64,000 nt of DNA, taken from Dehalococcoidia bacterium (GTDB lineage Bacteria > Chloroflexota > Dehalococcoidia > Dehalococcoidales > RBG-16-60-22). Under the pieces are notes generated by a model, which saw nothing but the letters and a program-made list of their open reading frames with translations, was not told the origin of the DNA and did not search any database. The stretch is from contig DUFF01000069.1 of NCBI GenBank assembly GCA_011174815.1, positions 5,603-69,602 of the forward strand, in the 5' to 3' direction. Positions 2,868 through 29,690 of the stretch are shown here, one piece after another. Every line of letters begins with the position of its first letter. The stretch's first letter is position 1. Both the position numbers and the translations under genes were made by a program.

Positions 2868-4573
2868 TGACCGCCAGGCAAGCTAAGCTGATCGCAGCAG
2901 CCAGAGGAGACCGGCCGGCCGACCTTATTCTCGCCAATGGCAAAGTGGTAAACACCTTCACCGGAGAGGTCACCTCGGGAAATGTCGCTATCTGCGGCGA
3001 CCGCATCGCCGGTGTCGGAGACTACCGCGAGGCAAGGCAAACCATAGACGTCTCCGGCAGATACCTTGCCCCAGGCTTCATCGATGGCCACGTTCACCTG
3101 GAAAGCTCAATGCTTGACGTTGGCCAGTACGTGCAGGCGGTGGTACCACGGGGCACCTCGGCCATCGTTACTGACCTGCATGAAATCGCCAATGTCTGCG
3201 GTCTGGATGGGATGCGTTACGTGCTTGACTGCGTCCGCAAGCTGCCCCTTGACCTGTTCCTGATGGCACCGTCCTGTGTACCCGCGACCCACCTTGAGAC
3301 GTCAGGTGCCGCTATCAGCCCCGAGGAGGTTCGCCAGATATTGCGCTGGCGGGAGACCATCGGGCTGGGGGAGGTAATGAACTTCCCCGGCGTCATCCAC
3401 GGCGAGGACACGGTGCTACGCAAAATTGCTTTAAGCCGGGGAAAGATTATTGATGGACACGCCCCCGGCGTCAGGGGAAAAGACCTCAATGCCTACATTG
3501 CCGCCGGCATAGGGTCAGACCACGAATCGGTAACCCTGGAAGAGGCCAAGGAGAAGCTGGAAAAAGGCATGCATGTCATGATACGGGAAGGCTCTGCGGA
3601 AAAGAACCTAGAGGCCCTGCTGCCGCTGGTCACCGATAAGACCTATAAAAGATGCCTTTTCGTGGTTGACGACCGCAGCGCCTATGACCTGCTGCACGAT
3701 GGAGATATCGATGCCGTGGTACGCAAGGCGATCAGGCTCGGCCTTGAGCCGGTGCGGGCCATCCAGCTAGCTACCATAAACGCCGCCGGGTATTTTTGCC
3801 TTGATAGCCTGGGTGCCATCGCCCCCGGCTACTTCGCCAATATCCTGCTGCTTGATGATTTGGATAACCTGTCGGTGCACACGGTCTTCTATCGCGGCCG
3901 CCCGGTCGCCAGAGAGGGAAAGCCTTTGTTTTCACTGCCGCAGGTGGACAATCGCGCCGTAACCGGAACGATAAACATCAAACCATTTGATGCCGGAAAA
4001 TTGAGATTGATGGCTACATCAGAAGAACTGCCCGTTATCGAAGTGGTGCCGGGTCAGATCGTAACCCGGAAACGCTACCTAAAGGTCAAAACGGTAAACG
4101 GCCAGGTTATCCCCGACACTGAACGGGACATCCTGAAGCTGGCGGTGGCGGAAAGGCACCGGGCGACCGGCCACATCGGGCTGGGAATGGTGGTCGGCTT
4201 CGGGCTGAAGAAGGGGGCTCTGGCTTCCTCCGTGGCCCATGATTCGCACAACATCGTCGCCGTTGGGACGAGCGACGAAGATATACTGATGGCGATTCGG
4301 GAGATCGAGCGCCTTCAGGGCGGGCTGGCGGCGGTGGCAGAGGGCAAGGTGCTGGCCAGTCTGGGGCTGTCCATTGCCGGACTGCTCTCCGCTGAACCAT
4401 TGGAAAACGTAGTTGCCCAGCTGGGCAAGCTGGACCAGGCCGCCAGAGAACTCGGCGCCAGGATCCCCTCGCCCTTCGCCACCCTCTCTTTCCTCGCTCT
4501 GCCCGTCATTCCCGAACTCAAGCTCACCGACCGGGGACTGGTGGATGTGAACGAGTTCAGGCTAATCAGTTGA
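2867..4573 (+). CDS. ade: Adenine deaminase
   Basis: 568 aa with GFIDGHVHLESSM, DGHAPG and GSDHES amidohydrolase metal-ligand motifs. The length is typical. Confidence 0.9.
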   Translation: MTARQAKLIAAARGDRPADLILANGKVVNTFTGEVTSGNVAICGDRIAGVGDYREARQTIDVSGRYLAPGFIDGHVHLESSMLDVGQYVQAVVPRGTSAIVTDLHEIANVCGLDGMRYVLDCVRKLPLDLFLMAPSCVPATHLETSGAAISPEEVRQILRWRETIGLGEVMNFPGVIHGEDTVLRKIALSRGKIIDGHAPGVRGKDLNAYIAAGIGSDHESVTLEEAKEKLEKGMHVMIREGSAEKNLEALLPLVTDKTYKRCLFVVDDRSAYDLLHDGDIDAVVRKAIRLGLEPVRAIQLATINAAGYFCLDSLGAIAPGYFANILLLDDLDNLSVHTVFYRGRPVAREGKPLFSLPQVDNRAVTGTINIKPFDAGKLRLMATSEELPVIEVVPGQIVTRKRYLKVKTVNGQVIPDTERDILKLAVAERHRATGHIGLGMVVGFGLKKGALASSVAHDSHNIVAVGTSDEDILMAIREIERLQGGLAAVAEGKVLASLGLSIAGLLSAEPLENVVAQLGKLDQAARELGARIPSPFATLSFLALPVIPELKLTDRGLVDVNEFRLIS

Positions 4574-7871: not shown

Positions 7872-8480
7872 CTACGAATTCATCGCCTTGATTATGGTGA
7901 TGAGGCCGTCATTCAGATAGCCTCTTTTGACCTCGGCAAGATGGTTTCTGGCCAGCAAGACGTCCAGCCCGCCCTGCGCCAAGTAATCTTTGAAACAACG
8001 ATGGTGCTTCCCGCCGGCGAAAAACTCAATCAATTTGACCAACCAGGGTAACAGGTTATCAGGCAGTGGAACCTGAAAATCAAGGAAAAGCAAAATACCG
8101 CCTTTTTTGACCACCCTCTTCATCTCCGCAATTATATTGTCCCGCGCCGTCCTCTCTTTTTCGTGCAGGGCGAATGAGATGGAAGCACAGTCAAAGCTAT
8201 TGTCCCTGAACGGCAGGTGCTGCGCATCGGCTCTATAAAAGGACACATTTTTCGAGTTTTTGTTTCTTCTATCTTTTATGGCCAGTTTGAGCATATTCGG
8301 GTCCAGCTCTATGCCCGCAGTCATCATACCCGCCCGGGCATAGTGAAAGGCCTGGTCCCCGGTACCACAGCAAACATCCAGCACCCTATCGCCAGCCTTC
8401 ATTCTGGAAAAATATATGGCATAAAGCCTGACGCCTCGTAAGAGAGGGTCTATTACGGTGGCGTAGTTCAAGAAAAACAT
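7872..8480 (-). CDS. Class I SAM-dependent methyltransferase
   Basis: 202 aa with motif I VLDVCCGTGD and the post-I region GIELD. Substrate unknown. Confidence 0.75.
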   Translation of the reverse strand: MFFLNYATVIDPLLRGVRLYAIYFSRMKAGDRVLDVCCGTGDQAFHYARAGMMTAGIELDPNMLKLAIKDRRNKNSKNVSFYRADAQHLPFRDNSFDCASISFALHEKERTARDNIIAEMKRVVKKGGILLFLDFQVPLPDNLLPWLVKLIEFFAGGKHHRCFKDYLAQGGLDVLLARNHLAEVKRGYLNDGLITIIKAMNS

Positions 8481-8485
8481 TGGGA

Positions 8486-9481
8486 CTACCGTTTCTTAAG
8501 CTTTTCGATAAGCAGCGGCACCACCTGGAAAAGGTCGCCCACGATGCCGTAGGTAGCCACCTCGAAGATAGGGGCGTGGGGGTCATCGTTGATGGCGACG
8601 ATGCACTCCGACGTCTGCATTCCCACCACGTGCTGCAGGGCGCCTGAAATGCCCACGGCGATGTAAAGACGGGGGCAGACTGTTTTGCCTGTCTGGCCTA
8701 TCTGGTGCGGGTAAGCGAGCCACCCCTCGTCCACCGCCACCCGCGTGGCACCCACCGCACCACCCATGACCGAGGCCAGCTCCTGTATCATCTCAAAATT
8801 TTCCGCCTTTTCCAGACCGCGCCCGCCGGCGACGATGACATCTGCCTCCTCAATTTTGACCGTTTCCGCAACCTCGGCGACAAATTCCACCAGCTTCGTC
8901 CGCGAGGTGTAACGCTCCCGCTTGAAGTCCACCTTTATTATCTCCCCTTTGCGGCTTCCGTCCGTCTCATGCAGGGAAAAGACGTGGGGGCGCACCGTCG
9001 CCATCTGTGGTCGCGCCTCAGGACAGGTGATGACGGCCAGGATATTGCCGCCGAAAGTGGGCTTGGTCTGTAAAAGCAGCCTTTTATCGGCGTCTATATC
9101 CAGGTCAGTACAGTCGGCGGAGAGGCCGGTGGGCAATGCCGCTGCCACGCGGGGAATGAAGGCACGACCCAGAGCAGTGGCGCCGGCCAAGAGGATCTCC
9201 GGTCGGTGCTGCTGAACCAGCTCGACGAGCTGCTGTGTCAGGAGGTCTTCCTGATTATCGCCCAGCTCGGCGCTATCAACAAGGTATATTTTATCCACGC
9301 CGTGGGCAATCAGGCCATTGACGTCATCGACTTCGTGGCCGAAACAGACGGCGCTCAGTTCCACCCCCAGGGCATCAGCCAGTTCTCTCGCCCTGCCTAA
9401 AAGCTCGTAGGCAACGTTCTTGATTTGACCGTTCCTCTGCTCGGCGAATACCCAGATGCCGCTATAATCCTCGTTACCCAT
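8486..9481 (-). CDS. etfA: Electron transfer flavoprotein alpha subunit
   Basis: Has PRLYIAVGISGALQHVVGM (FAD-binding signature). I prefer the start at MGNEDYSGIWVFAEQ (9481) over the ORF-track start at 9508, because it avoids overlap with etfB. Confidence 0.88.
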   Translation of the reverse strand: MGNEDYSGIWVFAEQRNGQIKNVAYELLGRARELADALGVELSAVCFGHEVDDVNGLIAHGVDKIYLVDSAELGDNQEDLLTQQLVELVQQHRPEILLAGATALGRAFIPRVAAALPTGLSADCTDLDIDADKRLLLQTKPTFGGNILAVITCPEARPQMATVRPHVFSLHETDGSRKGEIIKVDFKRERYTSRTKLVEFVAEVAETVKIEEADVIVAGGRGLEKAENFEMIQELASVMGGAVGATRVAVDEGWLAYPHQIGQTGKTVCPRLYIAVGISGALQHVVGMQTSECIVAINDDPHAPIFEVATYGIVGDLFQVVPLLIEKLKKR

Positions 9482-17265: not shown

Positions 17266-18081
17266 TCAGCCCCCTATCCTGCTTTTGATTTCAGGCATGG
17301 CAGCCTGTGCCGCCACCTCCCCTAGCTTTATGCACTCACGGGCTCGGTGAAACTCCGCCGCCCCGATATGTACCACGTCAGGCTCAATCACAACGTCAGC
17401 TTTCTCCAGGCTTGACCTCACCAACGAATAGGCGCCGATGTGTATGGATTGAACCAAAACGTGGATGATATTCGGCTCCCGGGTGCTTTTTGGGCTTTTC
17501 TTAACTGGCGGGTGAAAACGGTCAAGCACGCCGGGGATGACATTGACAGCAATGATAAAATCGGCGCCCATTTCCTGAACCAGGTTCACCGGCACCGGGT
17601 TGGTCAGGCGGCCATCCACCAGGTATCTGCCTCCCCGTTTTACCAAGGTAAATACGCCGGGGATGGACATGCTGGCCCTGACTGCCTCTATCACGGAACC
17701 TCGGCCGAGCACGACCGCCTCCCCGGTATCGATATCAGTCGCGGTGCAGGCGAAGGGAATCCGCAGGTCACTGAATTTCACATTGCCACCAAGAAACTGG
17801 ACCAGCTGGTCGCTGATTTTTCTCCCCTTGATGAGGCCGGTCCTGGGCAGGGCGGGATCGATGAAGCGGGTTAACCGGCCCTTTGACAGCGCCGTAACCT
17901 GCTCCTTTATCTGCGCCGCGTTTTTATGACGGGCGTAGAGGGCACCGACAATGGCGCCAGCACTCGTGCCCGCAATCAGGTCAACTGGAATGCCCTCTCT
18001 CTCCAGGACATTGAGGACGCCGATGTGCGCCAGTCCCCGTGCCGCACCGCCACCCAGCGCCAGGCCAATCTTCTTCCCCAT
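17266..18081 (-). CDS. Patatin-like phospholipase
   Basis: 271 aa with GGGAARGLAHIGVL (oxyanion hole), GTSAGA (GxSxG) and VDGRL (catalytic Asp). Confidence 0.88.
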   Translation of the reverse strand: MGKKIGLALGGGAARGLAHIGVLNVLEREGIPVDLIAGTSAGAIVGALYARHKNAAQIKEQVTALSKGRLTRFIDPALPRTGLIKGRKISDQLVQFLGGNVKFSDLRIPFACTATDIDTGEAVVLGRGSVIEAVRASMSIPGVFTLVKRGGRYLVDGRLTNPVPVNLVQEMGADFIIAVNVIPGVLDRFHPPVKKSPKSTREPNIIHVLVQSIHIGAYSLVRSSLEKADVVIEPDVVHIGAAEFHRARECIKLGEVAAQAAMPEIKSRIGG

Positions 18082-18085
18082 CAGC

Positions 18086-18553
18086 TCAAGCTCTCCTCAA
18101 AAACCAAGGATGGAAATGGATAAATTTGCCCTGGTAAAAGAGCAGGACCATAACGCCCAGGACAAGCATCATGACATCGATATATAGCGCGCCAGCAACG
18201 GACAAGCTGTACTCTGCCCAGCTCTCCGCAGCGCCAAAACAACCGCAGGGCTTATCCCCCAGCCCCTGAGCAAGCAGTATGCCGTTATTGACAATCAAGC
18301 CCACGATAAGCGCCAGTCCCAGGGAAGCTACCAGCCTGGCGGCAATTCCAGCGATGAGGAGCACGCCAATTACTATCTCGATGTAAGACAGCCAGCGGAA
18401 GATAAACTTATCCACCACCGTGGGCAGAAATTCCGGGAAAACGAAAATAACAAAAGATTCCGTCTGGTTGAGCGTTTTCCCCAGACCAGCGGCCAGAAAA
18501 ATGAGGCCCAGGATGATGCCAGCGCCTACGACTAACCAGTTAAGACGTGTCAT
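18086..18553 (-). CDS. MauE/DoxX-family membrane protein
   Basis: The start at MTRLNWLVVGAG (18553) avoids overlap with the HerA gene. Four TM helices and the CGCFG motif typical of MauE. Confidence 0.65.
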   Translation of the reverse strand: MTRLNWLVVGAGIILGLIFLAAGLGKTLNQTESFVIFVFPEFLPTVVDKFIFRWLSYIEIVIGVLLIAGIAARLVASLGLALIVGLIVNNGILLAQGLGDKPCGCFGAAESWAEYSLSVAGALYIDVMMLVLGVMVLLFYQGKFIHFHPWFLRRA

Positions 18554-18602
18554 GATACAATTCAGTCCAATCGTTTGTACTCCCTGCGGCAGGCCAACCC
18601 CC

Positions 18603-20213
18603 TCACCCCCACAGCTCTTCGATGTCCTTCTCCGCCTGTTTCCCGCCCTCTCCCTTTCCAGCGGCGAGAAATTCCTGATAGGACTGCGGCGAGCCGTACT
18701 CCCGCGTTCTGATGACCACCGGCATGGGTACAGCATGTCCGAAAATGAGCGCCTGCTGCTTTGACTCCAGCCGGGACAGCACCGATTTCAAAGCGCCTTT
18801 GCCGGAGACGCCGGCGAGGACGCTGTCAATGTCTCTCTCGTTATCGAGCAGGCAGGTGACTTTGGTGCCCATTTGGGACATCACCTCGGTGTCAATGCCG
18901 CTGGGACGCTGATCAATGACCAGCAGGGTCACATTGTATTTCCTCATCTCGCGGGCGATGGTGCCGAAAATGGTGCGGCCGGCAACCTCCGGATTGAGGA
19001 AGCGGTGTGCTTCCTCAATGGTGATGACCAGCGGCGTGGGCTTGACCGTAGCCTCACCCATCGCCTTCTCCATCCGCTCGCGGTACTGGGCATGGATGCG
19101 CCGCGTCAGCAGGTTGGCCACCAGAATGTAGGCAGTGATGTCCGTGTAGCGGCCGAACTCAAGGACCACGTTTATCCCCCGGTCAAGGTATTCCAGAATG
19201 CGTGTTACAGCATTGTCCGGCGCCTGTGGCTCGATAAAGGGGAGGCGGCCCACCGTGGCCAGACCCCTTTTCAAATTCTGGAAGGTGCTCTCGTGGATGG
19301 ATAGCTCTTTCAGTAGCTCGTTTGTCTCCTCGGAATCGGGCAGGTCAGCAGCCTGCCGCAGCCAGTCCCGGCCAAAACGGCGCCGCAGCTGGTAGATGGC
19401 CTCCACCGCCGGCTCGGTCAGGTTCAGGGTCTGGCGCAAAAGTGCCATGTCCTCCGGCTCAATCTCATCATAGCCTATCTTCACGACGAAGTCGGTGCTC
19501 ACCTTTCTCCGCCGCGAGCTTTCCTCATCAAGGGTGAACACGGCCACTTTTGACGGGAAAAGCTGTTTCAGCGCCTTGACTGACTTTCCCCCCTCGCTCG
19601 TCCCCGCCCAGCCGTACTCGTTGTGCATGTCGAAAATCAGATTCACCGCCGCGCTCTTCTGCAGCATGCCGATGAGCAGGATGCGGGTGAGAAACGTTTT
19701 GCCGGTGCCGCTCTTGCCGAAGATGCCGTTGGAGCGCTTGACCAGCTCCGGCAGGTCGAGGCATATCTTGGTCTCCATATCCAGCGGCGTGCCGACGTAA
19801 AATCTCTTTTCGTCCTCGCCGCCGAAGACGAGCTCCACATCCTGTTGCGAGGCCAGATTGACCGCCGAGAAGTGGCTGGGCACCGTCTTCACCGGCTGCG
19901 GCCCCTCAATCAGGGTGTCGACGTCGCCGCCGATGGTGAGCATGGGCAGAACGTGCAGGGTGCCGTAGGTGCCCGTTCCGGAGAGCACCTCGGCGATAAA
20001 GGGGTCGGAGATATCGGGCGGGGTCAGGGTGAAGCGCGGGTCGATGACGCCCAGGCCGATATCGGTAATCATGCCGAAGAACCTCTGCCTCTGCCCCTCG
20101 ATGGTGACGTATCTGCCCACCGCCATGTCCTCCACCGATACGCCGCCGTCCAGCTTAACCTCAACGCCGCTCTCCAGCGAGCCGGAGACCACAAGGCCCA
20201 GCCTGTCCGTCAT
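18603..20213 (-). CDS. herA: HerA/FtsK-class ATPase (HerA-like helicase; N-terminal HAS barrel plus P-loop)
   Basis: 536 aa. N-terminal barrel-like VGRYVTIEGQRQRFFGMITDI, Walker A GIFGKSGTGKTF, Walker B LVITIEEAHRF, and a QRPSGID arginine-finger region. The start overlaps the upstream gene's stop (ATGA). Confidence 0.8.
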   Translation of the reverse strand: MTDRLGLVVSGSLESGVEVKLDGGVSVEDMAVGRYVTIEGQRQRFFGMITDIGLGVIDPRFTLTPPDISDPFIAEVLSGTGTYGTLHVLPMLTIGGDVDTLIEGPQPVKTVPSHFSAVNLASQQDVELVFGGEDEKRFYVGTPLDMETKICLDLPELVKRSNGIFGKSGTGKTFLTRILLIGMLQKSAAVNLIFDMHNEYGWAGTSEGGKSVKALKQLFPSKVAVFTLDEESSRRRKVSTDFVVKIGYDEIEPEDMALLRQTLNLTEPAVEAIYQLRRRFGRDWLRQAADLPDSEETNELLKELSIHESTFQNLKRGLATVGRLPFIEPQAPDNAVTRILEYLDRGINVVLEFGRYTDITAYILVANLLTRRIHAQYRERMEKAMGEATVKPTPLVITIEEAHRFLNPEVAGRTIFGTIAREMRKYNVTLLVIDQRPSGIDTEVMSQMGTKVTCLLDNERDIDSVLAGVSGKGALKSVLSRLESKQQALIFGHAVPMPVVIRTREYGSPQSYQEFLAAGKGEGGKQAEKDIEELWG

Positions 20214-20803
20214 TTCAGCCTCCCCAGAATTGCCCGGAACTGGTTATATTGCCCGCCGAGCATAATAGATAGTTCCTTGCCCGCCGCCACCAGAAAAGCG
20301 TGGGGGTCTTCCTGCGCTCCACTCATCAGGCGCAGCGCGGCGGGCACAATCTCCTCCCTGGCCACGGGCAGACTGGCGTTCACCAGCAAGGTTAGAAAGG
20401 CCAGCGACCGCCCGAACTCCCGCACTTCATCGGGCGGGCAGGCATGGACAAAGCTGTGGATGCGTGCCGGGTTGGGCGGCAGATATTGATAGATGTTTTC
20501 TCCCGCCTTATGCCCCACCACCAGCACGCTGAACTCGCTGCGGAGCAATTTGGAGAGCTGGGGGCTGGACTGGTAGATGGCCTCCTCGCTGGCTTCATCT
20601 CTGCCGCGAGCGATGGGCCGCCGCCCCGGCTCCAAGCTGCCGGTGGTGGCATGATAGACGATGCCGTAGATGTCCAGCTCGCCGTTTTTGGTCTTCACCA
20701 GGCTGCCCAGAGGCGGCAGCTCATAAAGCTCGTAACACTGCGCTACAAAGCCCGCGGTGCTGGCCTCAATAATTTCCCCGACTCTTTCAGATGTTTCAGC
20801 CAT
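20210..20803 (-). CDS. Stand-alone HAS-barrel-like protein, HerA partner
   Basis: 197 aa. The N-terminus VGEIIEASTAGFVAQCYE...LGSLVKT...IYGIVY resembles the HerA N-terminal barrel, and there are no NTPase motifs. Translationally coupled to the HerA-like gene. Confidence 0.5.
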   Translation of the reverse strand: MAETSERVGEIIEASTAGFVAQCYELYELPPLGSLVKTKNGELDIYGIVYHATTGSLEPGRRPIARGRDEASEEAIYQSSPQLSKLLRSEFSVLVVGHKAGENIYQYLPPNPARIHSFVHACPPDEVREFGRSLAFLTLLVNASLPVAREEIVPAALRLMSGAQEDPHAFLVAAGKELSIMLGGQYNQFRAILGRLK

Positions 20804-20836
20804 AAATGATGAACCTCACCCCCTTAATCCCCCTCT

Positions 20837-21257
20837 CTATGGATTAAACACCATGTCATATGCGCTAGCTGTGTTACGTTCTATCTCCAGCGGAATATTA
20901 GCCGTTATATCGAAACTATAACCTTCCGAAGACTTCTTTGGAAGAATCGTCGCATAAAGGTCGAGGAGCTCGGCAAAATTCGCTCTCAGTTCGTCAGAAG
21001 CAATGTCTAACTCACCGACTATGGCTCCTCTCCAGTATGCCGTCAGCTTTTCAAAGGTAGCCCTGTCCGGTGGTGACGGCTCGCCACTAAACTCCTCCAG
21101 CCTCTTTAGCTGTCCATTCAATATACCCTCTTCGGACCTGAGTTGTCTATGTGCAGCCAACAATTCTTCATCGGTTATTATGCCCTCAGCTTGCTGCTAG
21201 GAGTGCGGATATTAATTTTGACAGCTCAAATCTCTCCCGTACTGGTTTCTTCGTCAT
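20837..21257 (-). pseudogene. C-terminal remnant of a large serine recombinase (N-terminal catalytic domain missing, one frameshift)
   Basis: The 108-aa ORF plus upstream codons read QQAEGIITDEELLAAHRQLRSEEGILNGQLKRLEE...ANFAELLDLYATILP, a coiled-coil/C-terminal pattern of large serine recombinases. A second frame (from 21257) adds KPVRERFELSKLISALL. No resolvase catalytic domain is present. Confidence 0.4.
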
Positions 21258-21471
21258 AGAAGAACTATATTGGAACGACTATCTTTATTAAACACCTTTC
21301 AGGCAATTAGTCAAGGGAAAAACGAGGCTGTTTCGGCACTGAAAAAACTCAAATACCTTTTGGGTATACCGAAAGATAAGTCCTATTATCTTTTAGGGTG
21401 ATAACTAAAAACGGAAATATGAGGACGACTTGTGATATCATAGTAAGTTTGAAAGGTTAGTTGGGGGCAAA

Positions 21472-22119
21472 ATGAACGCGGTTTTGTTTGATCTTGATGG
21501 GCTTCTGCTGGATACTGAGAGAATCGCCCTATCCACATTTGTTGACTCATGCAGAGAATTTGGCTTCGATCCTGACCTGAGAGTCTACTACAAATGTATT
21601 GGCACAACGTCTTCTAGGACCAAAGAAATACTCACGGATGGGTATGGCAAGACCTTACCCTTAGATTCTATTTATGAACTTTGGAGTGAGAAGTATCAGG
21701 AAGAGACATCAGATAAGCCTATCCCTTTGAAAGCAGGAGCCCTAAGTTTGCTGCGGTACTTAGAGAAAGAAGGGGTGAAAAAAGCCATTGTTACCTCGAC
21801 AGGCCAAGAGAGTGCGCGAAGATGGCTCGCCAATACTGAGATCCTGCATTTTTTCGATTTTGTTCTGGGAGGCGATCAAATATCAAATGGTAAACCGAAT
21901 CCCGAAATATACCTAACGGCGTGTCACAAATTGGATGAAAAGCCTCCCAATTGCCTGGCACTGGAGGATTCTGACAATGGTGTCCTAGCAGCCTTGAACG
22001 CAGGTCTAGTGGTTATTCAGGTTCCGGATCTCATCCAACCTTCCGCCGATGTGAGAGCTCTAGGACATAGAATCGCGAAGTCATTGGTTGAGGTTGAAAA
22101 AATCTTAAGAACGATGTGA
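21472..22119 (+). CDS. HAD-superfamily hydrolase (beta-phosphoglucomutase/phosphatase-like)
   Basis: 215 aa with motif I FDLDGLLLDTE, motif II VTST, GKPNPEIYL and EDSDNGVLAALNAG. Confidence 0.85.
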   Translation: MNAVLFDLDGLLLDTERIALSTFVDSCREFGFDPDLRVYYKCIGTTSSRTKEILTDGYGKTLPLDSIYELWSEKYQEETSDKPIPLKAGALSLLRYLEKEGVKKAIVTSTGQESARRWLANTEILHFFDFVLGGDQISNGKPNPEIYLTACHKLDEKPPNCLALEDSDNGVLAALNAGLVVIQVPDLIQPSADVRALGHRIAKSLVEVEKILRTM

Positions 22120-22273
22120 CCGGCCAAGCGAGTCGCGATTGAGCAGAATAGCATCTATCTTCCGCGACGCCTTTCTTGTGGCGATTCCTCCTTGACGGTC
22201 AGCTTTACTAAGCGTTAAGATAACCACACGGTTATTGATATAGCTACTGCGGAATACAATCTCCAGTCAGATA

Positions 22274-23074
22274 ATGCCTATCGTTCATGGTAAACTTGAA
22301 AAAGGAGGAAAATTGGAATACTTTAATCTTTCAGGAAAGGTTGCCATAGTAACTGGCGGCAACCGAGGAATTGGCTTTAGTATCGCAAAGGGCATGGCAG
22401 GTGCTGGAGCGGACGTCATCATTGCTAACCGGAAAGCTGCCGAAGGCCAGAAAGCCGCGGACGCCATTAAAAAGGAGAGCTTAAAGGCAGCCGCCGTTCC
22501 CGTTGATGTAACCAGCATCCCCTCGATTTATGAAATGGTCTCAAAAGTAATCAGAGATTTTGGGAAAATAGATATTTTGGTCAATAACGCTGCCGTTATC
22601 ACCAGGAAACCGGCTGAAGAGTATCCAGAGGAAGAATGGGACCGTTTAATGAACACCAATTTGAAGGGAGTTTTCTACTGTTGTCAGGCCGTAGGAAGAG
22701 AAATGATTAAAAACAAAAAAGGGAAAATAATCAACGTCTCTTCCAATATCTCAGCCAGAGTACAAGTGATTCGGGCAGCTTATGCAGCCTCCAAAGCCGG
22801 GTTGAATCATTTAACCCGTTCCCTTGCTTATGAGTGGGGAAAGTACAATATTAATGTTAATGCCCTGGCGCCAACAGTTACCATTACTGATATAAATCGA
22901 AAGTATTTTACAGAAGAACACCCCGAGGAATTACAAAAGTATATTGAGCAGACTCCTATGGGCAGAATTGCCGAACCCGATGATTACGTAGGCACTGCCA
23001 TATATCTGGCTTCTGACGCGTCAAACTTCGTAACCGGTCAGGTTATATTCGTCGGTGGGGGCATAACTCTTTAG
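22274..23074 (+). CDS. SDR-family oxidoreductase
   Basis: Has TGGNRGIG, NNAA and YAASKAG. An alternative TTG start at 22313 has a much better SD (aaaaggagga). Confidence 0.85.
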   Translation: MPIVHGKLEKGGKLEYFNLSGKVAIVTGGNRGIGFSIAKGMAGAGADVIIANRKAAEGQKAADAIKKESLKAAAVPVDVTSIPSIYEMVSKVIRDFGKIDILVNNAAVITRKPAEEYPEEEWDRLMNTNLKGVFYCCQAVGREMIKNKKGKIINVSSNISARVQVIRAAYAASKAGLNHLTRSLAYEWGKYNINVNALAPTVTITDINRKYFTEEHPEELQKYIEQTPMGRIAEPDDYVGTAIYLASDASNFVTGQVIFVGGGITL

Positions 23075-23124
23075 GGTAATAGGCAGCATGCCTGTCACTA
23101 TTGATAAAGAGGAGATAACGGCCA

Positions 23125-23793
23125 ATGGGAAGAGTTATTGATCTCTCGTTCACTATCAAAGAACACTGGCGCTGGCTGGCCAAATTATCCGCTATTCATA
23201 CCCACAAGGACTATCATTTCTTGACACAAACCCTCAATATGAACCTGCATGGGTTCACGCATGTAGACGCTCCTCTGCACTTTCTGCCGGAAGGAATCTC
23301 CATGGAAAAAGTGCCGCTGGAGAAGTTCATGGGAGAAGCAGTGGTGGTGGATTTGTCTTATTTAGGGGAAAACGATGGCGTCACCGCACAGGATCTGGAG
23401 GAAAAAGGTGACGATGTAAAGCCCGACGACATCGTGTTACTGCGCACTGACTGGCCTCTTAAATGCGATTACATGAGTCGCGATTTCTGGGGCATAGCTC
23501 CTTACACTGCACGCGATGCCTGCGAGTGGTTAGTCCAGCGTAAGGTCAAAGCAGTTGGCTATGACTATCCACCCGATTATGTATTGAGAAAAAAACTACT
23601 AGACCCACAATACAAGGATAAGCCCGAGGAGAATACTACCCATGACGTTTTCTTCAAAGAAGGCATATTTGTCATAGAGTACTTGTGCAATCTCCATCTC
23701 ATTACCAAAGAGCGGGTCAAATTAATAGCGCTGCCCCTTTTGATAGAAGGAGCAGGAGGTTCACCGGTAAGGGCGATTGCTATTGAAGAGTGA
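23125..23793 (+). CDS. Cyclase-family protein (kynurenine formamidase-like)
   Basis: 222 aa with the metal motif HGFTHVDAPLH. Confidence 0.75.
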   Translation: MGRVIDLSFTIKEHWRWLAKLSAIHTHKDYHFLTQTLNMNLHGFTHVDAPLHFLPEGISMEKVPLEKFMGEAVVVDLSYLGENDGVTAQDLEEKGDDVKPDDIVLLRTDWPLKCDYMSRDFWGIAPYTARDACEWLVQRKVKAVGYDYPPDYVLRKKLLDPQYKDKPEENTTHDVFFKEGIFVIEYLCNLHLITKERVKLIALPLLIEGAGGSPVRAIAIEE

Positions 23794-24007
23794 GTCCACC
23801 CGATAAACGCTGCCTACCGTGCTTTATGTTCGTTACACCATAAGGTGAACCAGGTATTTGATACAGCGATATAACCACCTTATACTATTCGCCCCGTCAT
23901 GATTACAAAGCGCATCTTTGATATGTCTTCTTTTTTTATACAATTAAAAGATGCGCAACTCACTCCGGTTCAATGAACCCGTTATCTGGAAACAGGTCAA
24001 TTATTTG

Positions 24008-24928
24008 TTATACCTTGGCCAAGATTTCGTTAATCTCTTCATCGGTGAGCTTCACGTGCTCACCTTCCGCCAGTGATGCTTCAAAATCGCTGTGAAGGTT
24101 GAAGTCAAAAGTAATATCTCCGTCAGCGGGCATCCTTTGCCCAACGAAGGACTTAGTGGCAGGCCTGATGACCACATCCGGGTTATAGTCCCAGGCTATG
24201 TCATGTTGCCACTCCGGGTGTGCGCACAGGAAAATCAGTTTACCCCGATAGCCTGATGGTACACGAAACACGTTGGGTATAACCCAGTCAATTTTCAGGC
24301 CTACTTCTTCAAGAGCTGCCACAGCGTACATTTTCAGAATCCCGGGGTCGAAGTTTATCTCTACATTACAATGGACATGGTCAGCTGGAGACTCTTCAAT
24401 CAACCTGAGCCATTTTTTAAAATGGTCAGACTTGAAGTAGGCGCGTATTTCAGCTTCTTCGTGTGGTCCCACACATTTAAAATCAAACTGCTTGTAGTAT
24501 TCGTCCATGAACTTTTTGCTCCAGCCCCACACGTTATCTTCCTGGACGTCTTTGTACAGCGGAGTTTTATTCAGGTCTGCGTCTGGTCGAACTTCTGCCG
24601 GTGCTATAAGCACATCGGGATTGTAGAACCAAAATAATTCATAATTGGCCAGAAACCGGTGGGTCTTGGAATCTACGGGCTGAACATTGATGAACATGCC
24701 CACGCCGGGAAGACCAGAGAATTTAATACCTCGGTCTAGGACAACGCCCTTCAGCTCATGATATTTCGTAAAAAGCTTGGATAAAGACTCGGGATGGATA
24801 CTGTTTTCCACATATATGTGCATATGATACATCGGGTCATCAGTCTGGGTGAGCATATGCATAAACCTGTGCCACTGGTCTGATTTGAAATAGCCGGCGA
24901 TGCTCTCCACAATATTGTTTCTTACCAT
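24008..24928 (-). CDS. Hypothetical protein built from two homologous halves of about 150 aa
   Basis: The start at 24928 has the SD aaaggagatagaaca. The internal repeat is visible by eye: IAGYFKSDQWHRFMHML...HMHIYVE...FWFYNPDVLIAPAE versus IRAYFKSDHFKKWLRLI...HVHCNVE...AWDYNPDVVIRPAT. I do not recognise the family. Confidence 0.6.
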   Translation of the reverse strand: MVRNNIVESIAGYFKSDQWHRFMHMLTQTDDPMYHMHIYVENSIHPESLSKLFTKYHELKGVVLDRGIKFSGLPGVGMFINVQPVDSKTHRFLANYELFWFYNPDVLIAPAEVRPDADLNKTPLYKDVQEDNVWGWSKKFMDEYYKQFDFKCVGPHEEAEIRAYFKSDHFKKWLRLIEESPADHVHCNVEINFDPGILKMYAVAALEEVGLKIDWVIPNVFRVPSGYRGKLIFLCAHPEWQHDIAWDYNPDVVIRPATKSFVGQRMPADGDITFDFNLHSDFEASLAEGEHVKLTDEEINEILAKV

Positions 24929-25061
24929 TGTTCTATCTCCTTTTATCAATAAATAGTTGTGGTTTATTCACTTACTGGCACCTCTGGTCACCCCGCAACA
25001 TCAAAACACGGCCTAGCGATAGACACTTTAGCCAGTTGTATTACCTCCTGTCAAGTCCACT

Positions 25062-25069
25062 CAATTGTA
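25062..25069. repeat. Target-site duplication CAATTGTA (left copy)
   Basis: The identical 8-mer occurs at 27066-27073, immediately outside the inverted repeats. Confidence 0.8.
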
Positions 25070-25086
25070 GGCAAAGTACACTCTTT
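25070..25086. repeat. Left terminal inverted repeat of the IS
   Basis: ggcaaagtacactcttt. An adjacent 8-bp hairpin, cactcttt/aaagagtg, lies at 25080-25099. Confidence 0.8.
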
Positions 25087-25147
25087 CTTGTAAAGAGTGC
25101 CTAATAGGTATATACTGCCTATCAAATATATTGATAGGAGTTATCGT

Positions 25148-25708
25148 ATGCCTATTGAAGTCACAAGGATTATCTACGCAATACTGGTATTATTGTCACT
25201 CACCACGATATATATATTGGCGTTACGCATTGTCATTAAGATATTCTCCGTATTATTCCGATTGTTGTATAAAACTGCGTGGTTTAGAAGATTACTTTTT
25301 ATACTGCAAACTAAATTACAACAGGCAATTGATTATACTTCTCCATTTATTAGGCGATTGTGGAATCTTATCGAAGTACTTATTGACCCAGTATTTTACG
25401 GATATTCGATTGTTGCTGTTTACGATAGAGTGCAAGTTATCAATCAGTACGTACAAAACAATCCTCAGTACAAATTCTGGGACTTACTTGAGGCTAATAT
25501 GAATTATGATTTAAGTTTTTGGCTTGCATTTACTATTATTTTTACGCTCTGGTTTTTTGTGAGAGCCAATACACATATGAGTGATAAGATATTTCAGAAG
25601 AGAGTTCTAAAGAGTCTGAATAAATTGTCAGGTGAATCTGATGAGTTAGATATAGGGAAAATCAATAAAGAAATACGGGAACACTTAAGAAAGAGGAAAG
25701 AGAAATAA
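25148..25708 (+). CDS. IS passenger ORF: AT-rich membrane protein, unknown function
   Basis: ATG at 25148 with the SD taggag 7 nt upstream (the ORF track starts at 25097). It has TM helices and a basic C-terminus. The stop is 1 nt before the transposase start. Confidence 0.5.
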   Translation: MPIEVTRIIYAILVLLSLTTIYILALRIVIKIFSVLFRLLYKTAWFRRLLFILQTKLQQAIDYTSPFIRRLWNLIEVLIDPVFYGYSIVAVYDRVQVINQYVQNNPQYKFWDLLEANMNYDLSFWLAFTIIFTLWFFVRANTHMSDKIFQKRVLKSLNKLSGESDELDIGKINKEIREHLRKRKEK

Positions 25709-25709
25709 T

Positions 25710-26759
25710 ATGAGCTTCATACGAGCAAAAGAAATTCCGCCTGGTTCGGGTAACTGGTATGACTACGAAGTAATGACTATCCACAAAGGTAAAAAGGTCA
25801 TACAGAAGGTCATCCGTTATATTGGCAAATCCAGTTTGCGTTCTTCGCGTTCTATGCGTTCTGGTGGCAGTGTAGGTTCTTATCCGGCAGCCGTTTCGTC
25901 AGCATCAATAAGCCCTGTAGATGATGCTAAAATCCACAAAATGAAAACACCCGCCCGACAGATAGCTTCTGCTTTGGGTATGTACTATGGCGGTATGTCC
26001 CTAGATGCTATTCAACAGCAATTCAGGCAAGACTATGATACCGATATGAGTGAAAGCAATTACTGGAATTGGGTAAAGCGATTTACCAAGGAAGCTATAA
26101 AACAGACAAAGCATTTTAAGCCTGAAAATATAGGTGATACTTGGGTTGCCGATGAAACCTATATGAAGCTAGGGGATAAGACTGTTTACTTCTGGGATTT
26201 AATAGACTCAAAAACTAACTACCTTCTGGCTTCTCACGTCTCATTCAGCAGGGGAAGCAGGGAAGCAAAAGTCTTAATGAAGCTGGCAGAGCAGAGAGCG
26301 GGCAAAACGCCTAAAGTGGTAATAACCGATAAACTCAGGTCTTATGAAGTGGCGATAGAGGATGCCTTTGGTGCGGATACAAAGCATAAGCAAGGCGAGC
26401 CATTCAAGTTCAAGGTAAGTGGTACTTCCACAGCAGAGATAGAGCGGTTTCATAAGACACTGGAACAAAGAACAGACGTATTCCAGAAGTACAATGATAT
26501 TGAGACTATCAGGCTTTTAACTGATGGCTGGCTAATAAACTATAACTTCTTTAAGCAGAATGAAGGATGCGGGAATATCCCGCCAGCTCAGGCAGCAAGC
26601 AGCGTAGTACCCTTCAAAGACTGGAATGATGTAGTCATACCTGAAGGCGTTCACGATATTGACTACAAAGTAAGCCTGTATCGCAGGAAATCGGTTAAAA
26701 AGGGTAAGCCTGTTTTTGATGCTACACTAACGCCTATAGAAATTGACAAGGAGAAATAA
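25710..26759 (+). CDS. DDE transposase, IS6-family-like, with extended N-terminus
   Basis: 349 aa with WVADETYMKLGDKTVYFWDLID (D), VVITDKLRSYEVAI (D) and TAEIERFHKTLEQR (E). Confidence 0.75.
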   Translation: MSFIRAKEIPPGSGNWYDYEVMTIHKGKKVIQKVIRYIGKSSLRSSRSMRSGGSVGSYPAAVSSASISPVDDAKIHKMKTPARQIASALGMYYGGMSLDAIQQQFRQDYDTDMSESNYWNWVKRFTKEAIKQTKHFKPENIGDTWVADETYMKLGDKTVYFWDLIDSKTNYLLASHVSFSRGSREAKVLMKLAEQRAGKTPKVVITDKLRSYEVAIEDAFGADTKHKQGEPFKFKVSGTSTAEIERFHKTLEQRTDVFQKYNDIETIRLLTDGWLINYNFFKQNEGCGNIPPAQAASSVVPFKDWNDVVIPEGVHDIDYKVSLYRRKSVKKGKPVFDATLTPIEIDKEK

Positions 26760-26764
26760 TAGTT

Positions 26765-27046
26765 ATGGATAAAAAATTGAAATCAGAGGTAGATAGAGCT
26801 ATCCCAGAAGCAAACGAAATTTATGAATATATAAAGAGCAATTACGGTGACCAGCCGTGGATGGGTGATACAGAGAGGTTTATGGCTCTCACATTCCTAT
26901 CTACTCGTGATTTAGTAAAACATTCCATAGTTTTAACTGGTCTTACTAGATGGCTTAGAGGGCTTACGATAGTATTAGGTGTCTTGGCTTTAGCTCAGTT
27001 GGGTGTTCTGATATATCAGATTATCTATAGAGTGCCTAATGGCTAA
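26765..27046 (+). CDS. IS passenger ORF: small membrane-anchored protein, unknown function
   Basis: 93 aa with a C-terminal TM helix LTIVLGVLALAQLGVLIYQII. Ends 2 nt before IRR. Confidence 0.45.
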   Translation: MDKKLKSEVDRAIPEANEIYEYIKSNYGDQPWMGDTERFMALTFLSTRDLVKHSIVLTGLTRWLRGLTIVLGVLALAQLGVLIYQIIYRVPNG

Positions 27047-27048
27047 TC

Positions 27049-27065
27049 AAAGATTGTACTTTGCC
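27049..27065. repeat. Right terminal inverted repeat of the IS
   Basis: aaagattgtactttgcc, the reverse complement of IRL with one mismatch. Confidence 0.8.
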
Positions 27066-27073
27066 CAATTGTA
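27066..27073. repeat. Target-site duplication CAATTGTA (right copy)
   Basis: Direct repeat of 25062-25069. Confidence 0.8.
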
Positions 27074-27303
27074 AGTGCAGGGGACATGAATCGGAGCCGT
27101 TTCTGGCTAATAAGGTGAAAAAATGGCTGACGCGGCTTGGTGTGAAGACTTTGTTCATAGAACCGGGCAGTCCCTGGGAGAAGGTTATATTGAGTCATTT
27201 AATGGAAAGCTTCGGGATGAACTCTTGGGCCGGGAAATCTTTACGACTCTTGAGGAAGCCAAGGCCTTTGATGCCATCACTTGCTTTCTGTGTTGAAGCG
27301 TAA
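27074..27303 (+). pseudogene. Remnant of an rve (integrase-core) transposase, frameshifted and truncated
   Basis: FLANKVKKWLTRLGVKTLFIEPGSPWE, then after a 1-nt frame change GYIESFNGKLRDELLGREIFTTLEEAKA. This is the conserved C-terminal block of IS3-type integrase-core transposases. The N-terminal catalytic part is absent. Confidence 0.65.
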
Positions 27304-27360
27304 AAGGTGTGTTACCTCTGTTTTCTAGACTCATAAGAGCCGATATGTTTGGTAGCAGCA

Positions 27361-27741
27361 CTAGCGTACATGACATGTTGCAAACATAGCAGGAGGGCAT
27401 TGCCAGTTTCCAATCTTCTTGACATCCATCTTGAGTCTAGTACCATCTAAAGTCAACTGACCTTCAATGATGACTGAACGACATGGGCTAGCTCTCTCGG
27501 GTTTTTCATGCTGAGACTCATATATAACGTAACACGCATTGGCATTGTTCTCGATGCAATTGATCTTCCGGCCCTTTCTTGGACTTATAATGAAATACAG
27601 AGTCTTGCCGTCAAAGTGATGTTCAAGGGGCACAGCATAGGGCTTATCTCGGTCCACCAATGCAAGAACGCCTACCGGGCTGTCCTTTATAAATTTCATT
27701 ACTTCTAATTCGTCCATCGCTCCAACGCCTGTTGCAGTCAT
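27361..27741 (-). CDS. Pyridoxamine 5'-phosphate oxidase-family (FMN-binding split barrel) protein
   Basis: 126 aa with SPVGVLALVDRDKPYAVPLEHHFDGKTLYF. Strong SD (aaggaggt) before the ATG at 27741. Confidence 0.65.
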   Translation of the reverse strand: MTATGVGAMDELEVMKFIKDSPVGVLALVDRDKPYAVPLEHHFDGKTLYFIISPRKGRKINCIENNANACYVIYESQHEKPERASPCRSVIIEGQLTLDGTRLKMDVKKIGNWQCPPAMFATCHVR

Positions 27742-28148
27742 AGAGTACCTCCTTCATGTGGTCAACTACTATTTGGATTTTAACACATCACAGGCAAGCG
27801 GGAACCATAATGGAATTGACGCGGAGTAGCACGTCTAAGTGCCCATCAAAATCTTGAAGCAAATTTCGCGACTATTGCTAACTGCGTACAGTGTATTTCG
27901 TCAGCGTAAATTGGGTATTACATGGCTTTTCTATGGCACATTTTATCTTTTCGTTACTCGCGATAAATCGAAAAATAAGATATGTTATATTTCATATTAA
28001 GCTTTTCGTTACCTCACTTGGTTTCTACTTTCGGTTTCCTCTTATAGTCTCCAATTATTATTCCCTTTTGGATACTCATTACTACCTATTGCACAATTGT
28101 CTATTTTGTGCGACATGCATTTTAATATTATTAAAAGTCAGGTCGTCT

Positions 28149-28179
28149 GCTGTCGAGTTAGGTAGTGCCACTCGACAGC
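28149..28179. repeat. 9-bp-stem hairpin (gctgtcgag / ctcgacagc, 13-nt loop) in an AT-rich non-coding stretch
   Basis: Read directly from the sequence. Lies in the roughly 650-bp gene-poor right end of the AT-rich stretch. Confidence 0.4.
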
Positions 28180-28402
28180 GTTACGCAGTGTCACAGATTG
28201 AGACTTCCAAATAGGCTTGAGTTCCTTCGGGTTCCCGTAGGATAATCAATACGGGTGATCCTAAATAACCAATGCGGTTTTACGCTCCAATCCTAGTCTA
28301 TTTGCTTCTGTACTAATCAATAAATTCAGCTTCGCATAGTGTTTACGCCTCTTCCTTAGGAAGAAGAGAGGGAGAAGAGGTTTTAGAAGGGCGGTGCCCT
28401 TC

Positions 28403-28465
28403 TTACTTCCCCTTTTTCTTCGGCTGCTTGGGTTTCTTGACGTTCTTTCTGCCTTTAGTGCCCAT
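28403..28465 (-). CDS. Candidate 20-aa lysine-rich peptide
   Basis: ATG at 28465 preceded by ggatggaggg (SD, 7-nt spacing). Encodes MGTKGRKNVKKPKQPKKKGK. Lies 25 nt downstream of the NurA stop and is followed by the hairpin gaagggc-acc-gcccttc. Confidence 0.25.
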   Translation of the reverse strand: MGTKGRKNVKKPKQPKKKGK

Positions 28466-28490: not shown

Positions 28491-29690
28491 TTACACCCAC
28501 CTCGTCCTTTTGCTGAAGCTCTTGGCGGAGGTGAGGGTGGGGATTTTTTCCTCAATGCAGAGCGATTCCACCAGCTGCCAGAACTCGGCTTTATCGGCGG
28601 CGGTGACCACCGCCTGCTCGTGGGCCTCACTCAAGGCCACCGGGTAGCCCTGCCCTCGCCGGCACTGGTCCAGGGTTAAAGAATGCACCAAACCCAGCAA
28701 TTCATCATTTTCCGCTGCCCAGCGCGGCATCTCCACCCGCGCCACCTCTTCCTCCAGCCTTAGGTAAAAGAAATAGATACGGTGTTCCCCATAACGCTCT
28801 TTGGTTATTTTCGACGGGCTGATAAAAAGCGCCGACCTCTCACACGGTGTCAGCACGTCCATGAACAGCTCTCGGTCGGTGACCCCGGCCACGCCCTCGC
28901 AGTCGCGGTCTTTAGGCGGCGGGCAGAAGCGGTCGCAGTCTGACACCTCATGCGGGCATATCGCCACCCGCAGCACGTTGACCACGTCGGTGCTGCGCGG
29001 GAAGCTGATGTAACTAGCCAGCGCCACTTTTTTCTCACGGTTTTGTTTTCTGATTTCTTCAAAGCAGGGCAGATACCCGTTTCCCAGCAGCGCCTCGGTG
29101 ACGAAGTCAGGGTAAGCCTCCAGCCCCCAGAGAATCAAAGAGCCATCGAGCAGCGCCAGCGTAGCGCTTCCCGGCGGCTGTTCCGCCACCAGCCGGGACA
29201 GATGGCAGCATTCCTCAACAGCGCGCTTGATGCCAAGCAATGTTCCCTCTACCATCTGCTCGCGGCCGGTCGCTGCCGCCGGCTTCAGCACCAGGTCCTC
29301 ATCCTCGGCGTAGAGGTGCGGTGCGCTATCCAGAAAGGCGTCCGGCTGGTCACCATACCTGAGGGCAACGGAGCCGATGTTTATCAGATAGCACCGCGTG
29401 GAGCGGTGCCGGTCGACGTCAATGTGAGAGCCATCGGTGGCGAGCACGCTGAAATCGGTGGGGGCGGGGGGTGCCGAATATCGTTTTGACAGCCCGTCCG
29501 TAAGTTCTGCCACCAGCCAGGTGGTGCGGCTGGCGGCGATTTTCCTTTTTAGCTTCTCCAGGTCAATGGCCTCGTCGCCGAGAACCTGCCGCGCATAATG
29601 AAACCGCTGCTGTCTTTCGGTGCGCCCTTCCTTCAGCCGAGCCACCATAAGGCTCGCCTGCGAGGCTATCTTGGTTAAATCCAGTGACAC
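28491..29690 (-). CDS. nurA: NurA-domain nuclease
   Basis: 399 aa with a GTG start after ggagaaggag. Has the two DGS motifs characteristic of NurA: VLATDGSHIDV and LALLDGSLILWG. Confidence 0.65.
   Translation of the reverse strand: MSLDLTKIASQASLMVARLKEGRTERQQRFHYARQVLGDEAIDLEKLKRKIAASRTTWLVAELTDGLSKRYSAPPAPTDFSVLATDGSHIDVDRHRSTRCYLINIGSVALRYGDQPDAFLDSAPHLYAEDEDLVLKPAAATGREQMVEGTLLGIKRAVEECCHLSRLVAEQPPGSATLALLDGSLILWGLEAYPDFVTEALLGNGYLPCFEEIRKQNREKKVALASYISFPRSTDVVNVLRVAICPHEVSDCDRFCPPPKDRDCEGVAGVTDRELFMDVLTPCERSALFISPSKITKERYGEHRIYFFYLRLEEEVARVEMPRWAAENDELLGLVHSLTLDQCRRGQGYPVALSEAHEQAVVTAADKAEFWQLVESLCIEEKIPTLTSAKSFSKRTRWV

Follow-up and report, generated by a model that had tools for sequence, protein, structure and literature searches.

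A putative third component of bacterial NurA-HerA: a conserved stand-alone HAS-barrel protein encoded between nurA and herA

Introduction

Does a small protein that resembles only the N-terminal barrel of a HerA ATPase form a third part of a bacterial NurA-HerA machine, or does it belong to an anti-phage system? The question is raised by a 64,000-nucleotide (nt) stretch of the genome of a Dehalococcoidia bacterium (Chloroflexota, Dehalococcoidales, RBG-16-60-22; assembly GCA_011174815.1, contig DUFF01000069.1, forward-strand positions 5,603 to 69,602), hereafter the window, in whose own numbering all coordinates are given. Here an open reading frame (ORF) of 197 amino acids (aa), ORF197 (20210-20803, minus strand), encodes a stand-alone HAS-barrel protein without an ATPase domain and lies directly upstream of a gene for a HerA-class ATPase (18603-20213, minus strand). 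NurA-HerA is a model helicase-nuclease for archaeal DNA end resection. The HAS barrel (Pfam PF09378) is, by definition, the domain found at the N-terminus of HerA and of the ATP synthase alpha and beta subunits, and the FtsK-HerA paper of Iyer et al. (2004) is said to have defined it.

The known NurA-HerA systems consist of two genes. In Thermus the stop codon at the end of nurA overlaps hepA's start codon (PMC5448004), and in Deinococcus nurA and herA make up an operon of two genes (PMC9960219). In archaea, HerA6-NurA2 forms by direct assembly, and an NurA2-HerA6 complex with mutually stimulated nuclease and ATPase activities is known only for the archaeal and Deinococcus proteins (PMC9960219). 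HerA is a hexamer in such complexes, and its six HAS barrels make up the pore through which DNA leaves as well as the surface on which the NurA dimer docks, at a 6:2 stoichiometry, each NurA protomer contacting four HAS domains (PMC9960219). We find that ORF197 belongs to a large bacterial family that is encoded between nurA and herA in several phyla, and we suggest that it is probably a further part of this machine.

Results

ORF197 adopts the fold of the HerA N-terminal barrel

An original prediction, made from the DNA sequence alone, had noted that the N-terminus of ORF197 looks like the barrel that normally begins HerA, and had proposed structure prediction as a check. The resemblance was borne out. 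Using an alignment of 106 family members that are 30-64% identical to the window protein, AlphaFold2 returned a model with a predicted local distance difference test (pLDDT) score of 96.7 and a predicted template modelling (pTM) score of 0.90; a model from a shallow alignment (20 sequences, 68-100% identical) reached a pLDDT of 48 and was discarded. The accepted model comprises a beta-barrel of the HAS-barrel fold at residues 7-121 (20441-20785, minus strand), built from strands at residues 7-14, 18-23, 35-40, 43-56, 87-100, 103-105 and 118-121 with a helical insert at 73-86, followed by a five-helix C-terminal domain at residues 124-196 (20216-20434, minus strand). When the model was compared with the PDB by Foldseek, the top 50 matches were all HerA chains, the best being 4d2i (E=1.2e-6, probability 1.00), and the alignments spanned 127-170 columns, mostly 127-147. 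Archaeal (4d2i, 9x1m), Deinococcus (7wrw) and defence-associated (8ziq, 9c1m, 8sub, 8j4u, 8wld) HerA proteins are all represented among these matches, the archaeal chains being among the best.

The same relationship was then sought at the level of sequence. ORF197 matched the Pfam HAS-barrel family at residues 8-75 with E=0.005 and 17.3 bits, a match that is not significant alone because it falls under the gathering score of 25.2 bits. Individually, however, 48 of the 106 diverse family members matched the same model at E<=0.1, the best with E=2e-9. Using hhalign, residues 4-138 of ORF197 aligned colinearly with residues 1-137 of the neighbouring HerA, which is the entire region before the DUF87 core; this alignment is weak (17% identity, E=0.023) and ends at residue 138. 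When PDB sequences were searched with a profile of the family alignment, nothing meaningful was returned (best E=1.3). Taking together the family-wide Pfam matches, the predicted fold, the Foldseek results and the colinear hhalign alignment, ORF197 is therefore an ancient paralogue of the HerA N-terminal module and no recent fragment. The fold that defines PF09378 makes up its N-terminal half, here as a separate polypeptide with a helical domain of its own.

ORF197 is not itself a HerA, as the P-loop core is absent and the C-terminus is purely helical. The lack of a P-loop and the unrelated helical C-terminus had both been anticipated: no GK[ST] motif occurs anywhere in the sequence, no DUF87 or AAA match was found in Pfam, and five helices occupy residues 124-196. 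This C-terminal domain has no detectable sequence relative, and NCBIfam holds no model for ORF197. The most conserved loops of the family, EPGRRP (residues 58-63), PQL (81-83) and LPPxPxRxH (108-116), all lie in the barrel, as do the most conserved single positions, E10, P30, G33, R61 (in EPGRRP), P81 and P109/P112 (in LPPxPxRxH). Judged by their conservation, these barrel-loop residues are candidates for an interface or a pore.

ORF197 is coupled to a divergent HerA that has its own barrel

The stop codon of ORF197 lies inside the start codon of herA, as originally reported, forming a 4-nt ATGA overlap at 20210-20213 (minus strand) of the kind expected for translational coupling. Read from the minus strand, the junction runs ...CTG AAA TGA, overlapping ATG ACG GAC. 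A purine-rich ribosome-binding site, AAGGGGGTGAGG (20814-20825, minus strand), precedes the ATG of ORF197 by 10 nt. A promoter scan upstream of ORF197 gave nothing above the shuffled expectation, and Rfam and tRNA scans of the window were both empty.

The downstream gene encodes a 536-aa protein in which we found, in agreement with the original prediction, the barrel, Walker A, Walker B and arginine-finger regions of a HerA-class ATPase. Pfam recognised a HAS barrel at residues 6-99 (E=3.1e-7) and a DUF87/RecA-like core (DUF87 E=1.9e-30). Walker A, located by alignment, reads GKSGTGKT (residues 166-173; 19695-19718, minus strand). Two further motifs are invariant in the HerA alignment: IEEAH, which holds Walker B and the catalytic glutamates (residues 399-403; 19005-19019, minus strand), and the conserved arginine motif DQRP (residues 434-437; 18903-18914, minus strand), presumably the arginine-finger motif of FtsK/HerA-type ATPases. 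The protein thus has the domains and motifs by which a HerA sequence is recognised. Its best NCBIfam HerA score was 80.7 bits, a partial match only, against equivalog cut-offs of 800-970 bits, and it therefore represents a divergent subfamily. It likewise stands apart from all HerA proteins of solved structure: its best match among PDB sequences (75 bits) covers part of the ATPase core, and the HerA of D. radiodurans was not recovered at E<=1e-3 with the window HerA.

The ORF197 gene is linked to herA and nurA in Dehalococcoidia

Gene-neighbourhood analysis of homologues, also proposed alongside the original prediction, showed that the ORF197 gene is strongly linked to both herA and nurA. The Dehalococcoidia were scanned using one genome per species; at least 303 species carry an ORF197 relative, and the best 80 loci were analysed. 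A HerA homologue follows ORF197 in all 80 of these loci, at about 1 kb or closer in 79 of them, the exception being a locus (L036) in which herA lies 6.5 kb away. Across 86 related loci, the 4-nt overlap between ORF197 and herA recurs in 62 and the gap is no larger than 30 nt in 70, counts that rest on start codons assigned in this analysis. Where at least 1.3 kb of upstream sequence was available, 47 of 57 Dehalococcoidia loci had a co-directional nurA upstream, at a spacing of 6-3091 bp; this variable spacer (L002-L077) differs from the nearly constant ORF197-herA overlap.

Identities to the window proteins in these loci, which span an order-level clade, range from 62 to 87% for ORF197, from 71 to 95% for HerA and from 56 to 88% for NurA. 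The flanking synteny is likewise kept, with LysE and HDAC genes upstream and MauE, patatin and MFS genes downstream. Given the linkage, the protein identities and the conserved flanks, the Dehalococcoidia pattern is therefore that of core genes passed on vertically and subject to strong purifying selection.

ORF197 homologues form a large family with the same gene order in other phyla

In a collection clustered at 90% identity, ORF197 had 3297 homologues (E<=1e-3) that match it in length. At 50% identity the family comprises 892 clusters, nearly all of 185-230 aa. According to the names given in the source, members occur in Chloroflexota (including lineages other than Dehalococcoidia), Tectimicrobiota/Entotheonellaceae, Bacillota/Clostridia, Actinomycetota/Aquicultorales, Latescibacterota and Thermodesulfobacteriota. 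At NCBI two members (P0415, P0459) are labelled 'HAS-barrel domain-containing protein', and the family is otherwise labelled 'hypothetical protein'. A few representatives are longer, namely P0229 (372 aa), P0159 (275 aa) and P0122 (247 aa), and have the ORF197-like part at the C-terminal end (residues 184-370 in P0229); these long forms could be fusions or the product of mis-called starts.

In seven distant loci (L081, L082, L083, L084, L086, L087 and L089), nurA, the ORF197 homologue (X) and herA abut or overlap tightly. The order is NurA-X-HerA in L082, L083, L084 and L089 and NurA-X-HerA-Mre11-Rad50 in L081 and L087; the ORF197 homologue of L087, P0412, is labelled 'Firmicutes bacterium' (Bacillota) at NCBI. 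The Tectimicrobiota locus L086 reads radA-recA-mraZ-DUF87-rusA-NurA-X-HerA-Mre11-Rad50-like-helicase. In this locus, a second and longer DUF87 protein (634 aa) and a RusA-like resolvase are encoded just upstream of NurA-X-HerA-Mre11-Rad50 (2390-4294 of that locus) and are themselves preceded by radA and recA, which makes for a dense cluster of recombination genes.

Using a tighter subfamily alignment, we found a second subfamily in 80 metagenomic loci. Among these, nurA was adjacent in 51 of the 61 loci with room for it, and herA in 44 of 53. Taken over both sets of loci, mre11-rad50 follows herA in L081, L086, L087, L096, L124, L148 and L158. Of the 34 metagenomic loci that have herA adjacent and enough downstream sequence, only four (L096, L124, L148, L158) show an mre11 match after herA; L153 stands outside this count because its mre11 match is cut by the contig end. 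In the window, no mre11-rad50 lies directly downstream of herA, which is followed by the MauE, patatin and MFS genes.

A mobile insertion separates nurA from ORF197 in the window

The first gene of the module in the window encodes a 399-aa NurA nuclease (28491-29690, minus strand; Pfam NurA, 5.4e-28) without a PDB sequence match. It is co-directional with herA and lies 7.7 kb upstream of ORF197, not adjacent to it. The claim of a non-canonical three-part module of NurA, barrel-only protein and HerA was thus right as to a conserved set of genes that differs from the two-gene systems, and needs correcting for the window itself, where NurA is not a neighbour of ORF197; adjacency is seen in the relatives.

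The intervening DNA is a low-GC (guanine plus cytosine) insertion of about 7.5 kb (20836-28345, boundaries approximate), delimited by its GC content, Pfam matches and breaks in homology. Its GC content of 0.41-0.45 compares with about 0.56 on either side. The sequence ceases to match that of the closest relatives at about 20835 and about 28345-28400, and in those relatives the spacer between nurA and ORF197 measures only 240-800 bp. Three independent assemblies from this species (L170, L171 and L173, with ORF197 99% identical) carry the identical insertion, which is therefore real and fixed; the ORF197-herA pair has stayed intact after the insertion in four assemblies. With 7.5 kb inserted here and up to 3 kb elsewhere, the nurA-ORF197 spacer appears to be a hot spot at which insertions recur.

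The insertion carries genes for a HAD hydrolase, an SDR and a cyclase, a 313-aa ORF without assignment, an insertion sequence (IS), transposase fragments and a PNPOx-like gene. The IS (25046-27089, plus strand), recognised by Pfam matches and a repeat search, is bounded by 41-nt imperfect terminal inverted repeats (25046-25086 and 27049-27089) and holds three ORFs, which encode a 203-aa protein of no assigned function, a 349-aa DDE_Tnp_IS240/rve transposase (25710-26759) and a 93-aa protein. A separate rve_3-type fragment follows the IS at about 27061-27303. For the insertion as a whole, neither a target-site duplication nor clean ends could be found, and inverted repeats were seen only at the internal IS. 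Directly upstream of ORF197, a TTG-start ORF of 108 aa (20837-21163, minus strand) was considered as a member of the module and rejected, since it matched no family, had no counterpart among the related loci and is part of the inserted DNA; it may be a gene fragment.

On the nurA side of the insertion, which lies between it and ORF197, DNA alignment revealed a very basic micro-ORF of 20 aa, MGTKGRKNVKKPKQPKKKGK (28403-28465, minus strand), with its own GGAGGG ribosome-binding site. Changes in the alignment fall mainly at third positions and are mostly synonymous. A micro-ORF of 18-28 aa is found between nurA and ORF197, on the same strand, in 51 of the 80 Dehalococcoidia loci (other sites include L002 6775, L026 6924 and L036 6919), with the consensus MG[ST]KGRKN[VI]KK... 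and 13 nearly invariant N-terminal residues. It has no Pfam match and is absent from the loci of other phyla (L081-L089), where the module genes abut. In L048 and L059 the micro-ORF is duplicated, the two copies lying about 1 kb apart.

Discussion

ORF197 as a putative third part of the NurA-HerA machine

We regard ORF197 as a putative subunit or adaptor, conserved and without catalytic function, that would be the third component of a DNA-end-processing NurA-HerA machine in bacteria. Its gene lies between nurA and herA in hundreds of species and in several phyla, and it is therefore probably a third part of this machine rather than an anti-phage component. Through the overlapping genes, ORF197 would be made in step with HerA; its barrel may then assemble on the HAS crown of HerA, or as a second coaxial ring, while the helical domain would provide or modulate a platform for the two-fold-symmetric NurA dimer. 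ORF197 would in this way adapt a motor of six-fold symmetry to a nuclease of two-fold symmetry and, given such a layer on the crown, DNA pumped by HerA would reach the nuclease through it. The biological role would be end resection or recombination, which we propose because mre11-rad50 continues the module in other lineages. In the present genome, the 7.5 kb insertion has parted nurA and the micro-ORF from the ORF197-herA pair and left that pair intact and coupled.

The module is best described as a variant of the known NurA-HerA; it is not categorically new and is no discovery in defence. Like DR_0836/DR_0837 of D. radiodurans and nurA-hepA of Thermus, it has nurA upstream of herA in a co-directional and coupled arrangement, and its ATPase combines a HAS barrel, a RecA-like core and Walker motifs (PMC9960219, PMC5448004). 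Unlike Deinococcus and Thermus, in which no gene lies between nurA and herA, a 197-aa barrel-only gene is interposed here and coupled to herA, and the window HerA is distant in sequence from that of D. radiodurans. The archaeal herA-mre11-rad50-nurA operon (Sulfolobus, Pyrococcus, Thermococcus) brings together the same four enzyme families as the mre11-rad50-bearing loci, although its gene order differs and a stand-alone barrel subunit has not been described for the archaeal complexes. A full-text literature search found no barrel-only protein or third gene linked to nurA-herA; an early mention in the 2004 HAS-barrel paper is possible.

Several observations weigh against ORF197 as a third subunit. 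The window HerA retains its own barrel, so that a second barrel layer is not obviously needed, and the Deinococcus, Thermus and archaeal complexes function without an ORF197-like protein. Taken alone, the resemblance in sequence of ORF197 to the HerA barrel is marginal, both in Pfam, where it is sub-threshold, and in hhalign. Nor is the linkage absolute. Lone ORF197 homologues, for which the flanking sequence covered (up to about 7 kb on each side, but only 141 bp upstream in L113) contains neither nurA nor herA, occur in L085, L113, L127, L129, L131, L132 and L140. Where checked, their neighbours are housekeeping genes, such as trpC and a HEAT-repeat protein in L085 (homologue at 8001-8696 of that locus, whose contig is a 4.86 Mb genome), tsaD in L127 and L140, and an AcrB-type transporter in L131. 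In four further loci (L088, L123, L144, L147), nurA and ORF197 are paired without an adjacent herA. Finally, what NurA-HerA does in living bacteria is itself a matter of debate (PMC9960219).

Weighing the alternatives

The original prediction had taken the nearby mobile DNA and the defence precedents of HerA as hints of an anti-phage role. In such a system of the HerA class, like SIR2-HerA or DUF4297-HerA, NurA would serve as effector, with ORF197 as an accessory sensor or adaptor. Several defence systems are indeed driven by HerA, with effectors that bind at its HAS face (PDB 8sub, 8ziq and 9c1m are among our fold matches), and in SIR2-HerA (Nezha) and DUF4297-HerA a HerA hexamer holds its partners on this face, the HerA chains of both matching ORF197 structurally. 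Added to this are the debated repair role of bacterial NurA-HerA, partial matches of PADLOC HerA models to the window HerA and the mobile DNA that adjoins the module in the window. The PADLOC matches, however, cover only residues ~375-510 of the ATPase core, with zero matches for ORF197 and zero for NurA, and the mobile DNA proved to be an insertion that splits the module at its variable spacer and therefore provides no defence-island context. Among the window genes examined there is no SIR2 or DUF4297 (Cap4-like) effector, the neighbours of HerA being ORF197, MauE/DoxX, patatin and MFS. A tblastn search of 72,556 plasmids and 50,697 phage records found no relative, and neither did a scan of viral contigs. 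Instead of the patchy, mobile distribution typical of defence islands, and unlike SIR2-HerA and DUF4297-HerA, the family has a vertical chromosomal distribution, with high identity and conserved synteny in a single class, and its neighbours elsewhere are mre11-rad50, recA, radA, rusA or housekeeping genes. With no plasmid, phage or viral-contig relatives and no PADLOC matches for ORF197 or NurA, an anti-phage system is highly improbable. The original prediction had also held that repair and defence could not be told apart from the sequence; the comparative context, with mre11-rad50 and radA/recA/rusA, now favours DNA-end processing over defence, as judged from gene neighbourhoods.

Two other explanations concern ORF197 itself. 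It may be a negative regulator or decoy, a free barrel that mimics the NurA-docking surface of HerA or caps the crown and so keeps nuclease and motor apart or inactive until DNA is damaged. Sharing its fold with the very domain of HerA that binds NurA would suit such a protein, as would the nurA-ORF197 pairs without an adjacent herA and the presence of a barrel in HerA, which makes a second, structural barrel dispensable. The stoichiometric translational coupling to herA in most loci nevertheless fits a co-assembling subunit better, and the sequence gives no sign of a damage-responsive switch, so we think a regulator unlikely; gene order and conservation do not distinguish it from an adaptor. 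Alternatively, ORF197 could be a relic of herA duplication, or have a function unrelated to HerA and NurA with synteny that is merely conserved. Some homologues are indeed unlinked to nurA and herA, and the similarity to the neighbouring HerA barrel, at 17% identity, is ancient. A relic or bystander is hard to reconcile with 892 clusters that keep both the length and the two domains, with a fold predicted at very high confidence from alignment co-variation, with a gene order kept across phyla in otherwise unrelated surroundings and with the retained 4-nt coupling, and we hold it to be very unlikely.

Returning to ORF197 as a third subunit, a stronger form of this proposal can be put forward tentatively, and we judge it possible but rather doubtful. 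Many bacterial NurA-HerA machines, in at least six phyla, would be three-tier assemblies in which an obligatory barrel-only ring is stacked on the HerA crown and adapts the six-fold motor to the two-fold NurA, and the Dehalococcoidia would add the lysine-rich micro-protein of 18-28 aa. Such an obligatory subunit would have been missed because the characterised systems (Sulfolobus, Pyrococcus, Thermococcus, Deinococcus and Thermus) all come from two-component lineages.

A widespread and conserved third gene suggests that a large, mostly uncultured share of bacteria uses a different NurA-HerA architecture. ORF197 reproduces precisely that domain of HerA which is responsible for ring formation and NurA binding, and it therefore offers a testable handle on the coupling of a six-fold motor to a two-fold nuclease. 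It also offers one on partner recruitment by the HAS crown, the same surface that is used in the SIR2-HerA and DUF4297-HerA defence complexes. In addition, about 900 clusters (50% identity) of 'hypothetical' proteins are given a context. We expect these results to be of moderate to good interest to those who study end resection and HerA partner recruitment.

Genes downstream of herA

After herA, the window encodes a MauE/DoxX-like membrane protein and a patatin-like phospholipase (17266-18736, minus strand). The patatin gene follows herA in about 45 of the 80 Dehalococcoidia loci and not in other phyla, and its product gives weak PADLOC matches to 'phospholipase effector' models (E about 1e-6). 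Patatin and MauE were considered as effector partners of herA and set aside as local synteny, because they follow herA only within the Dehalococcoidia; a functional link between patatin and herA is possible.

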